Below the pieces are notes generated by a model. That model ran no database searches, was not told the origin of the DNA, and worked only from the letters and a program-made list of their open reading frames with translations. Below are positions 11,189-59,220 of a stretch of DNA of 64,000 nucleotides, one piece after another. This DNA comes from Wenzhouxiangellaceae bacterium (GTDB taxonomy: Bacteria; Pseudomonadota; Gammaproteobacteria; Xanthomonadales; Wenzhouxiangellaceae): NCBI GenBank assembly GCA_965227925.1, contig CBDDGP010000003.1, forward strand, positions 869,472-933,471. Direction: 5' to 3'. A program made the position numbers and the translations under genes. Positions within the stretch are counted from its first letter, which is position 1. Each line of letters starts with the position of its first letter.

Positions 11189-11541
11189 GCCTGCATTCCG
11201 GGCTGTCGGCTGTGTGATCGCGAGTTCGCCGCTTTGCGGCTCGGTTCGTCAGGATTCGAACCGCCAGCCCGCTTCGTCATCCTTGAAGCATCTGAACGAG
11301 GCGGGATCTCCTGTTGATGGCGGAGAGGGAGGGATGGACTGCGCGCCTGCGGCGCTTGCCCTCCGCTGCGCTTCGGGTTGCTGCGCCCGCTGCGCGGGCT
11401 TGCATCGAGCTCGCCTTCGGCTCGGTTCGAACCCATTTGCGTTGCTTAGCCTTGTCGCGACCCACGGGGCGTGCATCTTGGGTCGCCTGCCTGCGTTCGT
11501 CCCTCCAGGGTTCGAACCTCCAGCCCGCTTCGCCATCCATG

Positions 11542-11570
11542 AAAAAACCCCGCGCAAGGCGGGGCTTTTT
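11542..11570 (-). terminator. duplicated copy of the tRNA-Ser rho-independent terminator
   Basis: AAAAAACCCCGCGCAAGGCGGGGCTTTTT has stem CCCCGC/GCGGGG with A- and T-runs on either side, so it is bidirectional. Confidence 0.6.
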
Positions 11571-11800
11571 CATGGATGGCGGAGAGGGAGGGATGGACTG
11601 CGCGCCTGCGGCGCTTGCCCTCCGCTGCGCTTCGGGTTGCTGCGCCCGCTGCGCGGGCTTGCATCGAGCTCGCCTTCGGCTCGGTTCGAACCCATTTGCG
11701 TTGCTTAGCCTTGTCGCGACCCACGGGGCGTGCATCTTGAGTCGCCTGCCTGCGTTCGTCCCTCCAGGGTTCGAACCTCCAGCCCGCTTCGACATCCATG

Positions 11801-11829
11801 AAAAACCCCGCGCAAGGCGGGGCTTTTTC
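11801..11829 (-). terminator. rho-independent terminator of tRNA-Ser
   Basis: AAAAACCCCGCGCAAGGCGGGGCTTTTT lies 5 nt downstream of the tRNA CCA end on the minus strand. Confidence 0.75.
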
Positions 11830-11834
11830 ATGGA

Positions 11835-11925
11835 TGGCGGAGAGGGAGGGATTCGAACCCTCGAACCGGGGTTACCGGTTAACGGTTTTCGAGACCGCCG
11901 CATTCGACCACTCTGCCACCTCTCC
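11835..11925 (-). tRNA. tRNA-Ser (anticodon CGA), 91 nt with long variable arm and encoded CCA
   Basis: Reverse complement is GGAGAGGTGGCAGAGTGGTCGAATGCGGCGGTCTCGAAAACCGTTAACCGGTAACCCCGGTTCGAGGGTTCGAATCCCTCCCTCTCCGCCA. Acceptor GGAGAGG pairs with CCTCTCC, the anticodon loop is CTCGAAA, and the T-arm is GAGGG-TTCGAAT-CCCTC. Confidence 0.95.
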
Positions 11926-12261
11926 GAAACTTGAATTGTAGTGATCAGATTGTCCTGATCTGCGGTCCGTTGGACCGCGAGACCGCCGCATGGACTGCGC
12001 AGCTGCGCTGCTTGCCCTCCGCTGGCGCTCCGGGTGGCTTCAACCGCTTCGCGGTCTTCGCATCGAGCTCGCTACGCTCGGTTCGACCACTCTGCCACCT
12101 CTCCGAAACTTGAATTGTAGTGATCAGATCGTCCTGATCTGCGGTCCGTTGGACCGCGAGACCGCCGCATGGACTGCGCAGCTGCCGCTTGTTCTCCGCC
12201 GCTCCGGGTCGCGATTCGCTGGCCGGAATCGAGCGGATGAATCAAGCTCGCCAGTATACCG
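11904..12261. repeat. 179-bp direct duplication covering the tRNA-Ser 5' part, its upstream region and a 91-nt insertion element
   Basis: TCGACCACTCTGCCACCTCTCCGAAACTTGAATTGTAGTGATCAGAT... occurs at 11904 and 12083. The first ~105 nt differ at one position that I can see. The second copy then degenerates. Confidence 0.85.
11935..11940 (-). promoter_or_regulatory. candidate -10 hexamer (TACAAT) for tRNA-Ser; an identical copy lies at 12114..12119 in the upstream duplication
   Basis: The minus strand reads CACTACAATTCAAGTTTC followed by GGAGAGG of the tRNA. No convincing -35 element was seen. Confidence 0.35.
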
Positions 12262-57137: not shown

Positions 57138-57286
57138 GTCTACGATCCTGGTTGATCCAAGGGCACGGCCGACCGCCGTAAGACCGCGAGTATGGCGACG
57201 CCCGATCAACGTCAGGTGAGCCTGGGGAGGGTCGATTTCAACCCGTCCCGGCGCGCGGTCCGGGGATCGACCGGCGCGAGAGAAAA

Positions 57287-57331
57287 TGGTCGGAGCGGGG
57301 AGATTCGAACTCCCGACCCCCACAACCCCAT
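57287..57331 (-). repeat. displaced 3' half of tRNA-Pro (45 nt identical to 59144..59188), the distal att-type direct repeat of the islet
   Basis: TGGTCGGAGCGGGGAGATTCGAACTCCCGACCCCCACAACCCCAT is identical at both positions. It spans from the first anticodon-loop nucleotide to the CCA end. Identity breaks immediately 5' of this span. Confidence 0.9.
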
Positions 57332-57465
57332 CATGGCGCCCGATTAGACGTAACGCACTGATAATTAAAGGCTTTAATCTCCAGCTGACCGCCCAATACC
57401 GTGCAATTCCGTACATTGAGGATCAATAACTTACATCGCGATATGCTACCGGATTTCCGACCGCT

Positions 57466-58005
57466 CTATTCTCCATTTTGCAGTGTCATCGAGCTCTGAA
57501 TTGAAAATTCGCCGGGGGGCTTGATTCTTAAAAGCCCATGCTCACACCGAATCTTCCCGTCTAGATCGAGCAACCTGGCTTTGTTCTCACTCCGATTTCG
57601 GCTAGTGACCTTCGCGATACCGTCAGTTGTTACGAGGGTATCGCAGCCGGTTGATACGGCAGTCTGCACAACCACAGCATCAAAAGGGGTCAGCATGTGC
57701 CTCTGAGCCAGCAGTGCAGCTTCCTTGCATAGCTTCGTGTGGGCAGGTTGTTTGTAGAAAATGCTTCGATCAAAAAAACTGCTGAAGGCTTCATTTTGTT
57801 GTTCTCGATCAACAACTTGTGACTCGATTTCTCTCAAATACAAGCATTCTGCAATTACTACGGTTGGAAGAACTATCTGAATTTCGCCGTTCTCCGCGGA
57901 GTCAATAATCGTCTGAACGTGTTGAGCTACGGGCTGCCTTTTGGAAATCACATCCAAAATGACGCAAGTATCCAAGCACACGTTTTGTCGACTCTCAACC
58001 GCCAC
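57466..58005 (-). CDS. PIN-domain (VapC-like) putative ribonuclease with ~50-aa C-terminal extension
   Basis: 179 aa, GTG start preceded by AAGG. The four acidic PIN positions are recognisable: VCLDTCVILD, VVIAECLYL, TPFDAVVVQTAV and LVTTDG. It overlaps the upstream gene by 11 nt. Confidence 0.8.
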   Translation of the reverse strand: MAVESRQNVCLDTCVILDVISKRQPVAQHVQTIIDSAENGEIQIVLPTVVIAECLYLREIESQVVDREQQNEAFSSFFDRSIFYKQPAHTKLCKEAALLAQRHMLTPFDAVVVQTAVSTGCDTLVTTDGIAKVTSRNRSENKARLLDLDGKIRCEHGLLRIKPPGEFSIQSSMTLQNGE

Positions 58006-58780
58006 GCAATCGCCTTATGAGCTCCTGCGGGTCCACATCACCCGCAATGCGGAAATCCATCGCCTGCATCTCAGCTAGTGTTGGAAGCTGATCATCACTC
58101 GGTATGGGTTCCCAGCTTTCCACGGTCATTGAAACCGGGGTCCCATTTCGAGCATATTTGGCTTCTCCGAATACACGAATCCTCGATTTGATCAGAGAAC
58201 CCAACTCTTCGGCTTCGTCGGGATCGAAATAGCAGACGGTGGCCCGCGACTTCTGCACCGGTGTGTAGATTCCGAATTCGCTCTTGCTCCCGTGAACGTT
58301 AATCCTTTCGAGACTCCCTTCAAGTTCAGTGCGCTCATGCACAAACTCCGGCCCGAGGGCCAAGTCGATGTGCTCGATCAAGGAAGGGCCAATGTAGAAG
58401 AAACTACCGCTGGAATTCTTAATCCCGATTCGGTCGATCTTTTTGCAGGTAGTGGAGGCGACAGTTCGAATATTAGCGAGGCACCTCTCGGTGAAATGCC
58501 TTGGAGCGACACCGCCCGTTGAGATTGTTTCTACCCCGGAAATGAACGCTGAAACGATACTTGGATTCGTCGCTCCCTCCCGACCAATCCCTTCAAAGTC
58601 GGTAAAACTCGGATTGACTCGCTTAAGGTCACCAACTACCCAATCAACAGACTCGCCTCCATCTGATAGCTCTCTGTCCAATTCACGCAGGGCGACCAGG
58701 GTATGGCGCAGTACAGTCAGAAAAGAAGAGGCGTCAATCAATCCTCCCTTTCCTTCGATTTTCAGAGTCAGTTTCTCCAT
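57995..58780 (-). CDS. hypothetical 261-aa protein, upstream partner of the PIN gene (candidate antitoxin/sensor); no domain recognised
   Basis: ATG preceded by GAGG. Codon usage and G+C match the PIN gene rather than the host. It is far larger than a classical VapB. The sequence begins MEKLTLKIEGKGGLIDASSFLTVLRHTLVALRELDRELS... and ends ...DVDPQELIRRLRGG. Confidence 0.7.
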   Translation of the reverse strand: MEKLTLKIEGKGGLIDASSFLTVLRHTLVALRELDRELSDGGESVDWVVGDLKRVNPSFTDFEGIGREGATNPSIVSAFISGVETISTGGVAPRHFTERCLANIRTVASTTCKKIDRIGIKNSSGSFFYIGPSLIEHIDLALGPEFVHERTELEGSLERINVHGSKSEFGIYTPVQKSRATVCYFDPDEAEELGSLIKSRIRVFGEAKYARNGTPVSMTVESWEPIPSDDQLPTLAEMQAMDFRIAGDVDPQELIRRLRGG

Positions 58781-59077
58781 CTGACCCTCACCGGCCTTAT
58801 CGGGAAATTAGCGCTCTGCAGCGAACAGCACCTGCGCAGACCGTAGAACCTCAGGCACACCCCACAAGCTGCGCAATGCAGCTCGGATGAGCCGAATTTG
58901 ACTGTACCACTTCCGTCTCTCAGCACGCTAGAGCCGGTCTATCGCCCCGCCACTCAAACAAATCGATTGCGAAAACTAGGGTAGCCCGCCAAACCACACT
59001 GCCCCGGCCACAGCGACGCACGGCGCACTCCAATTCGGCCAATTTTTCAGCCAAAATGAAACGCACCACAAAATATT

Positions 59078-59105
59078 TTCTACCTGATTTCTACCGCATT
59101 CTACC
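59078..59105. repeat. three helically phased direct repeats TTCTACC (59078, 59089, 59099) next to the tRNA-proximal islet end
   Basis: The plus strand reads TTCTACCTGATTTCTACCGCATTCTACC. Spacings are 11 and 10 bp. The array ends 38 nt from the tRNA-Pro CCA end. Confidence 0.6.
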
Positions 59106-59143
59106 GGCCCGAGGACCGGGCCGGTACAAGTGCTTGATTTAAT

Positions 59144-59220
59144 TGGTCGGAGCGGGGAGATTCGAACTCCCGACCCCCACAACCCCATTGTGGTGCGCTA
59201 CCAGGCTGCGCTACGCTCCG
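59144..59220 (-). tRNA. tRNA-Pro (anticodon GGG), 77 nt with encoded CCA
   Basis: Reverse complement is CGGAGCGTAGCGCAGCCTGGTAGCGCACCACAATGGGGTTGTGGGGGTCGGGAGTTCGAATCTCCCCGCTCCGACCA. It folds into a perfect cloverleaf with anticodon loop ATGGGGT. Confidence 0.95.

Follow-up and report, generated by a model that had tools for sequence, protein, structure and literature searches.

A 64,000-nucleotide stretch of a Wenzhouxiangellaceae genome (assembly GCA_965227925.1, contig CBDDGP010000003.1; the whole stretch is called the window here) carries at its tRNA-Pro(GGG) gene an islet of foreign DNA that is bounded by two attachment (att) sites and contains a single gene pair, encoding a PIN-domain nuclease and an upstream partner, open reading frame (ORF) A. 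Small and clean as it is, the islet adds a further member to a class of elements already described and does not represent a new kind of element, and it is probably a remnant without an integrase, comparable to the cis-mobilisable elements (CIMEs), of foreign DNA that a tyrosine integrase placed in the att site at the anticodon loop of the tRNA gene and that later lost its interior. The insertion has exact boundaries and a foreign composition, no integrase gene is present, the architecture of the att arms is conserved elsewhere and the pairing of ORF A with a PIN gene recurs in other genomes.

The boundaries are defined by a direct repeat. Positions 57287-57331 and 59144-59188 are identical at 45 of 45 nt, and this core has just these two matches in the whole window when up to three mismatches are allowed, with none expected by chance. 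Read in the sense of the tRNA, the repeat covers the 7-nt anticodon loop (A-T-GGG-G-T) from its first base and everything 3' of it up to the CCA end, and the displaced fragment starts exactly at the anticodon loop. The single intact tRNA-Pro(GGG), on the minus strand, was recognised by both ARAGORN and Rfam (59.5 bits) and is identical to the tRNA at the empty sites of the relatives described below, and neither program called a tRNA at the displaced copy. The intact gene and its cognate fragment, both in minus-strand sense, mark the two ends of the islet in the way that the ends of islands are recognised by Islander. On the element side of the distal core a weaker similarity continues, positions 57332-57339 being identical to 59189-59196 at five of eight bases with all mismatches transitions; the 5' arm of the anticodon stem is thereby copied imperfectly (GCGCCATG against GCACCACA), and this copy would be the expected core-type half-site. 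The interval holds two overlapping minus-strand ORFs (57995-58780 and 57466-58005) together with 363 bp and 134 bp of non-coding DNA, and excision by core-by-core recombination would give a circle of 1857 bp with an apparently full attP and the two genes. A sequence-only reading of this DNA had described the same structure, and direct comparison confirms its identical repeats, the tRNA read in its own sense matches its extent of the repeat from the first anticodon-loop base to CCA, and the non-coding parts that it had put at about 360 and 130 bp beside a two-gene PIN module in an 1812-bp interval are those measured here. All of its factual statements hold, and its proposed checks, as far as they were run, turned out as it had predicted.

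The loci of relatives were retrieved by exact-protein look-up with the IhfA of the window. At seven of them (L004, which is GCA_019800895.1, L005 and L007-L011) pheT-ihfA-merR is followed by one tRNA-Pro(GGG) and then by folE2, without any tRNA fragment or intervening genes. The distance from the CCA end to folE2 at these empty sites is 149 nt (174 nt in L004), as had been predicted from the window when folE2 was expected about 150 nt after the tRNA of an uninterrupted site. The flanks are 84-87% identical to the window at the nucleotide level, and the empty-site relatives are therefore other species of the same genus. In the alignment the displaced copy of the window continues into the host spacer of the relatives (TTTTCTCTCGCGCCGG...), with window positions 57200-57339 being 87-89% identical to them over 141-143 nt, and the intact tRNA of the window runs into unrelated DNA starting ATTAAATCAAGCACTTG. 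The islet interval is absent from these relatives, in which the site is uninterrupted, as Islander expects of an island. Judged from these alignments, the islet is a site-specific insertion and not an ancestral second tRNA; the latter, in the form of a degenerate gene, had been named beforehand as a case that would overturn the insertion, and it is excluded by relatives with a single tRNA and no fragment. The empty sites and the displaced 3' half of the host gene likewise support the earlier claim of a footprint of the tyrosine-integrase type, with the type of the integrase a probable one. At the distal boundary the window has one C fewer than the relatives, since the sequence after the tRNA is CCA-C-TTTTCTCTC in L004-L011 and CCA-TTTTCTCTC at the displaced copy (57286-57287). 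In the genome scan described below, the loci with a tRNA-Pro of the window type were labelled Wenzhouxiangella or Wenzhouxiangellaceae.

The same tRNA gene has been used by at least one other element. An eighth relative (L006:6773-12300, ENA ERZ28654022, TARA scaffold_89) has 5.5 kb or more of inserted DNA in the same tRNA-Pro, which opens with the same nine bases as the islet (CCA followed directly by ATTAAATCA), has arm repeats GTGTCACCA and encodes two Nu1-type helix-turn-helix (HTH) proteins and a ClpP-like protease; an integrase was not seen within the available 5.5 kb of this insert. From this comparison of sequences the tRNA-Pro(GGG) gene is a used integration site, or hot spot, in the genus. 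Four other Wenzhouxiangella loci (L046:2073-2352, L040:3510-6699, L023 and L051) have ATTAAATCA and a terminator hairpin 3' of the tRNA-Pro, and no displaced fragment was detected at them. In L040 the tRNA and folE2 are separated by about 3.2 kb, in which there is an ORF of 387 aa, and folE2 starts 279 nt after the tRNA in L046. These four loci may be older inserts with a lost distal end. L046 was considered as a further-decayed scar, but its spacer fails to align with the empty-site spacer and no conclusion was drawn.

The composition of the islet sets it apart from its surroundings. Its G+C content is 0.510 against 0.676 in the rest of the window, in agreement with the lower values that had been noted from sampled lines, and it is the lowest-G+C stretch of 1812 bp in the window, the next lowest being at 0.631. 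G+C at third codon positions (GC3) is 0.50-0.55 in the islet genes and 0.84-0.89 in folE2, merR and pheT. The sequence-only reading had taken the perfect repeats to suggest either a recent event or continued mobilisation. The perfection of a 45-nt repeat says little about recency, because 45 nt would often stay unchanged even at a few percent divergence, and the unameliorated G+C is the better argument; of continued mobilisation no sign was found.

A recombinase gene was sought in several ways. Neither islet ORF contains an integrase domain according to Pfam, peptides of the non-coding parts of the islet gave no Pfam matches, and tblastn of the P4-type integrase of a related element against the whole window gave no matches at E <= 10, so that the claimed absence of a recombinase gene or remnant stands. 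The islet is without genes for integration, excision and transfer, as are CIMEs, and without the integrase gene that Islander looks for inside an island. The retention of both att sites and the lack of an integrase support the earlier description of a CIME-like element or the residue of an island with intact att sites.

The consensus for integration host factor (IHF) is WATCARNNNNTTR, preceded by an A/T tract. At the level of sequence the islet has kept both attL and attR, with perfect cores, IHF-consensus sites in both arms and three repeats in the P' arm, as is expected of a CIME. The consensus WATCARNNNNTTR has two matches in the entire 64 kb, and these flank the two cores on the element side; WATCAANNNNTTR has one exact match in 64 kb, at 59127..59139. 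The position and motif of this P' site recur in 33 of 36 segments (the window, L006 and the genome-scan loci), and the offset of the P-arm site, -31, is shared by an IHF-consensus site in L048. The G+C-rich hairpin that follows the P' site occupies the place of the tRNA terminator hairpin in related Wenzhouxiangella inserts (aligned with L006, L023, L040, L046 and L051), but is without a T-run here. The three GGTAGAA repeats lie at +37, +47 and +58, that is 37-65 nt after CCA, and are putative arm-type integrase-binding sites resembling P'1-P'3; on the plus strand TTCTACC occurs seven times in the window where 1.4 occurrences are expected, with a cluster of three here, at 59078, 59089 and 59099. 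A one-mismatch version of the repeat, GGTAGCA, is a candidate site in the P arm but is weak on its own, about 0.1 being expected by chance in the 134-nt arm by our own estimate. Taken together the ends of the islet look like a complete attP split in two, to whose arm motifs IHF and an integrase would be predicted to bind, and the keeping of an attP-type layout at both ends is the new feature of this case. A promoter and terminator scan of the islet gave no minus-strand sigma-70 match and no canonical terminator, and it is possible that the operon is transcribed by read-through from the tRNA promoter.

The layout of the P' arm is not confined to this genus. A junction scan of one genome per species with the query C(C/G)CCGCTCCGACCA followed directly by ATTAAATC returned 34 loci (L019-L052) from Hyphomicrobiaceae and other Alphaproteobacteria, Wenzhouxiangella, Pelistega and a planctomycete, and at each of them ATTAAATCA-N4-TT(A/G) comes after a tRNA-Pro (GGG or CGG) or after no more than the 3' portion of one, starting at the anticodon loop. 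This motif matches the IHF consensus and spans Alpha-, Beta- and Gammaproteobacteria and the planctomycete. Arm repeats were analysed in the 36 segments already mentioned, and element-specific direct repeats of 8-11 nt occur at +36 to +60 with a spacing of 10-12 nt in 17 of them, compared with 1.8% of shuffles. Such a layout of repeats is expected of the arm-type sites that are bound by the N-terminal domain of integrases of the lambda and P4 type. The junction would appear to be characteristic of a single, very widespread family of integrative elements that target tRNA-Pro. At eight of the junction loci the motif is preceded by no more than the tRNA's 3' part, as attP-like or tandem-array junctions should be. 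At one of the eight, L027, the partial tRNA copy is preceded at 48 nt by the end of a 419-aa protein whose domains are Arm-DNA-bind_3, Phage_int_M and Phage_integrase; the other seven of the eight partial copies have no upstream integrase. An islet of 5.96 kb (L033:150-6137) lies between a tRNA-Pro(CGG) and a fragment running from anticodon loop to CCA, and its cargo consists of a SnoaL, two SDR and two LysR genes, with no integrase found in the islet. The contig of this last locus is titled Leptospira interrogans LS0056 NODE_9 and its tRNA is identical to that of Hyphomicrobiaceae loci, and it may for that reason stem from contamination or have been transferred recently. Together with the 259-nt units at the tRNA-Ser of the window, described below, these loci show that decay is common around such att sites, and base rates favour a remnant over an active mini-element.

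The cargo consists of the two overlapping genes. Pfam assigns the PIN protein to PF01850 (E = 6e-10) and to PF13470 (E = 3e-8), and the acidic residues D12, E53, D109 and D128, as in the toxins of VapBC pairs, are invariant in an alignment with three homologues, which suggests that the nuclease is catalytically intact. ORF A has no match in Pfam, NCBIfam, PADLOC or PHROGs; PADLOC-DB 2.0, with its models of described defence proteins, has no family at E <= 1 for either protein, and the NCBIfam VapB and VapC models gave nothing above cut-off for either. A word-indexed search found almost no close relatives of ORF A. The same kind of search with a 61-sequence profile returned six family members only, and the sampling of gene context for ORF A is correspondingly thin. 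An exhaustive HMMER search found 1106 representative clusters (50% identity) at E <= 1e-3, nearly all of whose members are 250-275 aa long and align end to end, the nearest relative being 35% identical. An AlphaFold2 model of ORF A built from the family alignment has a pLDDT of 93. In Foldseek its OB-fold alone matches OB domains that bind nucleic acids, namely those of Stn1, RPA, SSB and ExoVII and the anticodon-binding domain of LysRS, no match to the whole protein was found in the PDB, where a sequence search with the family profile gave noise, and the structural matches include three uncharacterised phage proteins at TM scores of 0.41-0.47. As regards gene context, a homologue of ORF A is followed by an overlapping PIN gene recorded by Pfam in L016/L017 and, weakly, in L018; in L001 a PIN-confirmed homologue (P0003) follows the C-terminus of an ORF A homologue; in L002 an overlapping ORF that is cut off at 40 aa, at most a putative PIN gene, follows the ORF A homologue; and in L014/L015 ORF A is solitary and adjoins groES-groEL. 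The pairing of ORF A with PIN is, as far as these gene orders go, conserved, ORF A is the presumed antitoxin-like partner of the nuclease, and the pair would be an addiction or stabilisation module of the toxin-antitoxin type. The nearest homologue of the PIN protein is 59% identical, and no tRNA fragment was found in the 467 nt that follow its stop codon. The family to which ORF A belongs (P0004-P0152; L014-L018) comprises more than 1100 clusters of proteins of about 260 aa with an OB-fold, has no Pfam model or solved structure, and is usually paired with PIN.

Table 1. Features of the islet and of its att sites (window coordinates).
Feature	Position	Strand	Remarks
Whole inserted islet, 1812 bp	57332..59143	-	From core repeats, empty-site alignment and composition
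Intact tRNA-Pro(GGG)	59144..59220	-	Host DNA in its 5' part; the 45 nt at its 3' end form the regenerated att core, attL side
att core, copy 1	59144..59188	-	Anticodon loop to CCA, within the functional tRNA; exact 45-nt repeat
P' arm IHF-consensus site AATCAAGCACTTG (WATCAANNNNTTR)	59127..59139	-	4 nt after CCA, preceded by ATTA; first feature of the P' arm
G+C-rich hairpin CCGGCCCG-GTCCT-CGGGCCGG	59104..59124	-	Read from the sequence
Three direct GGTAGAA repeats	59078..59105	-	59105-59099, 59095-59089 and 59084-59078; spacing 10 and 11 nt
ORF A, 261 aa	57995..58780	-	N-terminal alpha/beta part, OB-fold at about 146-226, conserved C-terminal tail of lower confidence
PIN-domain nuclease, 179 aa	57466..58005	-	11-nt overlap between its start and the end of ORF A
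GGTAGCA (CCGGTAGCA), candidate P-arm site	57444..57450	-	Arm repeat with one mismatch, 113-119 nt before the displaced core
IHF-like site GATCAATAACTTA	57421..57433	+	12/13 to consensus, inverted in the P arm; sequence reading and relaxed scan
Palindrome ATTAAAG-C-CTTTAAT	57364..57378	.	A/T-rich tract directly upstream of the P-arm IHF site; read from the sequence
P-arm IHF-consensus site TATCAGTGCGTTA (WATCARNNNNTTR)	57351..57363	-	20-32 nt before the displaced core
Element-borne copy of the anticodon-stem 5' arm, imperfect	57332..57339	-	5/8 identical, transitions only
att core, copy 2 (attR side)	57287..57331	-	Displaced original 3' part of the tRNA; exact repeat
Original host spacer between tRNA-Pro and folE2, 149 nt	57138..57286	-	Length as in L005 and L007-L011

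A second tRNA gene of the window also has repeated DNA beside it. Downstream of the tRNA-Ser(CGA) at 11835-11925 on the minus strand there are two tandem units of 259 nt that are 99% identical (window 11250-12185), and each unit starts with the same terminator hairpin and ends with the last 18 nt of the tRNA (ATCCCTCCCTCTCCGCCA). A block of 104 nt, made up of the first 23 nt of the tRNA-Ser and DNA upstream of it, is duplicated at 11903-12006 and 12082-12185, and a motif of about 100 nt (CGAACCGAGC...GAGCTCGATGC...GCGCAGTCCAT) occurs three times at this locus. The region 11250-12185 contains no ORF and no integrase. The units look like tiny tandem att-flanked remnants or a local tandem duplication.

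The most likely history of the tRNA-Pro islet would begin with the integration of a larger island or prophage of this att family. A tyrosine integrase, probably with an arm-binding domain of the P4 or lambda type and using IHF, would have integrated it at the anticodon loop; the element supplied a new 3' part of the tRNA from anticodon loop to CCA, and the original 3' part was pushed 1857 bp downstream, next to the old spacer between tRNA and folE2. The interior, including the integrase gene int, would then have been deleted to leave attL (the tRNA and the P' arm with its IHF site, hairpin and three 7-nt repeats), the two-gene operon, the 134-nt P arm and attR. The operon of ORF A and PIN would be transcribed in the direction of the tRNA. 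If the pair acts as an addiction module it would keep the segment in place, the loss of a non-replicating excised circle being counter-selected, and such a role would explain why this segment survived decay. The islet cannot move by itself, as it has no integrase, excisionase, replication or transfer gene, and the arrival of a cognate integrase in the cell might still allow its excision or its transport with another element.

Several points weigh against this account. No full-length relative with the same arm repeats or cargo was found in the viral, genome and metagenome collections, and it is for this reason that the deletion history has been drawn from base rates. The integrase gene of L027 ends 48 nt from the core, and the 134-nt P arm of the window has no trace of the 3' end of an integrase gene, so that a simple internal deletion would have to have removed int cleanly, or int would have to have lain elsewhere in the ancestor. 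Both arms look complete, which a mini-element mobilised in trans fits equally well. Because the empty-site genomes belong to other species the insertion is undatable, its age being bounded by the unameliorated composition only. Both junctions are seen in this one assembly, given that an independent Logan contig of the same strain, L003, breaks off within the tRNA, at 59194, after 1281 nt of 100% identity. Finally, ORF A is unlike any classical VapB antitoxin, and the toxin-antitoxin role of the pair is drawn from the arrangement of the genes; in place of a small upstream antitoxin with an AbrB, ribbon-helix-helix (RHH), PHD, YefM or HTH fold there is a protein of 261 aa with an alpha/beta part and an OB-fold.

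The alternative that survives best, though it is a good deal less probable than a decayed remnant, is that the islet is an active minimal element, made up of a full attP and an addiction module, which is moved by a cognate arm-binding integrase and excisionase encoded elsewhere. IHF-consensus sites in both arms, with three P' repeats at the canonical positions of the family, speak for it, as do perfect core copies. An attP of phage lambda measures about 240 bp, and 134 and 363 nt of arm DNA would be enough for one of that size. The lack of an integrase remnant is as if none had ever been carried, the composition has not been ameliorated, and another element occupies the same tRNA in a relative (L006). 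The arm repeats of L006 (GTGTCACCA), however, differ from GGTAGAA, so that its integrase would not be the cognate one, and the P arm of the islet offers a single imperfect arm-type candidate. Neither a second copy of the islet nor its genes at more than 59% protein identity were found in any collection searched. Scans of viral contigs with the attL junction, the attR junction and the displaced core gave 0 matches each, and the junctions and arm repeats of the islet had no second instance beside a tRNA-like core in the viral, genome or metagenome collections. A scan of metagenomes for displaced copies gave one match (L053), located at the start of a contig so that no P arm is visible. The nearest homologue of PIN has no tRNA fragment after it, as noted, and the nearest ORF A relative is 35% identical. 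Searches of PLSDB plasmids for ORF A by tblastn gave no match, and exact look-up of the ORF A, PIN and FolE2 of the window in public assemblies gave no record. No helper integrase was found, the 64-kb window included, and the architecture of the att family and a P4-type integrase are seen just in its distant members. Triple GGTAGAA repeats with a period of 10-11 nt in 16 viral contigs (L054-L069, IMG/VR) were considered as a cognate attP and rejected, being iteron-like arrays with no nearby tRNA-like core.

A more specific form of mobilisation in trans, to which we give a slightly smaller and decidedly speculative chance, is that the islet is a minimal selfish cassette, in which a full attP and an addiction module of a new PIN/OB-fold type parasitise the arm-binding integrases of the widespread tRNA-Pro element family and are thereby moved from one genome to another. 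Were this true, the islet would be an integrase-less hitch-hiker, analogous to the cassettes of integrons but for att sites of the tRNA type.

It is very improbable that the islet is an artefact of assembly in which a small circular or otherwise foreign molecule with the 3' half of a tRNA-Pro was threaded into the contig through the 45-nt core. The foreign composition would suit such an origin, as would the end of L003 inside the tRNA, which leaves the junction unconfirmed by that contig, and two further contigs (L012 and L053) also break at the boundary of the anticodon loop. On the other hand the window is part of a contig of about 1.15 Mb and reads longer than 45 nt would resolve both junctions, and the structure is the one that integration makes, with the intact tRNA leading into element DNA and the fragment into host DNA. 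Metagenome graphs are expected to break at conserved tRNA sequence from other causes, and L003 for that reason says nothing on the junction. The breaks themselves, in three independent metagenome contigs (the end of L003 at 59194, the end of L012 at 59189 and the start of L053), could reflect heterogeneity of the population at the att site or breaks in the graph at conserved tRNA sequence. The least credible alternative, that the 45-nt copy goes back to a second, ancestral tRNA-Pro gene or arose by tandem duplication on the spot, with native genes in between, can appeal to the fact that direct repeats may arise by duplication, as at the tRNA-Ser locus, but is contradicted by seven relatives with one tRNA and neither fragment nor genes before folE2, by a fragment that begins exactly at the anticodon loop, by intervening DNA of 51% G+C and GC3 of 0.50-0.55 against 68% and 0.84-0.89, and by DNA after the CCA of the intact tRNA that is of the element type (ATTAAATCA...) common to inserts in other genomes.

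CIMEs are decayed derivatives of ICEs (integrative and conjugative elements) or IMEs (integrative and mobilisable elements) in which attL and attR are retained (Guedon et al. 2017, PMC5704250), and they are catalogued in ICEberg 2.0 (PMC6323972). Like them the islet is flanked by both recombination sites without integration and transfer genes, the tRNA gene whose 3' part it occupies also serves other elements, and its movement would be expected only with an element that supplies an integrase. The CIMEs that have been described come mostly from ICE families of Firmicutes and are several kb or longer; the islet, in contrast, is 1.8 kb long and gammaproteobacterial (probably Wenzhouxiangella), carries the PIN gene pair as its only cargo, and is known here from its sequence without a parent element having been found. 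The anticodon-centred att class accounts for 2083 of the 3919 islands in Islander, which requires an integrase gene inside each island (PMC4383910); the class is the common one (also 10.1101/2020.11.02.365908), and the sublocation scheme of Williams (2002) is taken here as it is described in these two papers. The islet resembles the class A islands of Islander in the regenerated tRNA, the displaced 3' fragment in direct orientation, the identity from anticodon loop to CCA, the foreign composition and the empty site in relatives, and differs in having no integrase, so that pipelines of the Islander type, which require one, would not report it. With the attP of P4 and lambda it has in common the IHF-consensus sites on both sides of the core and three direct P' repeats with helical spacing, and the related locus L027 encodes an Arm-DNA-bind_3 integrase adjoining the core; it differs from them in a P arm with one imperfect arm-type candidate, and the binding of proteins would be predicted from the motifs. 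The gene pair is like VapBC toxin-antitoxin systems of type II in being an overlapping two-gene operon on horizontally acquired DNA with the PIN gene second and its four acidic residues intact, and unlike them in its upstream partner, a 261-aa OB-fold protein of an undescribed family rather than an AbrB, RHH, PHD or HTH antitoxin of 70-100 aa.

Island finders that require an integrase skip structures of this kind, yet these mark real horizontal transfer, and att sites that have been kept in a usable state can capture or accompany later elements. The islet is an unusually clean case, having exact boundaries, seven relatives with an empty site and an attP-like layout around the PIN pair alone, and is therefore a convenient substrate for asking whether integrase-less islets are mobilised in trans and whether modules of the toxin-antitoxin type account for which pieces of a decaying island are retained. 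Two by-products of the analysis are maybe more useful than the islet itself. The first is a signature, CCA-ATTAAATCA-N4-TTR with repeats of 8-11 nt at +36 to +60, by which members of a widespread tRNA-Pro element family can be told, and the second is a large family of OB-fold proteins that is habitually paired with PIN.

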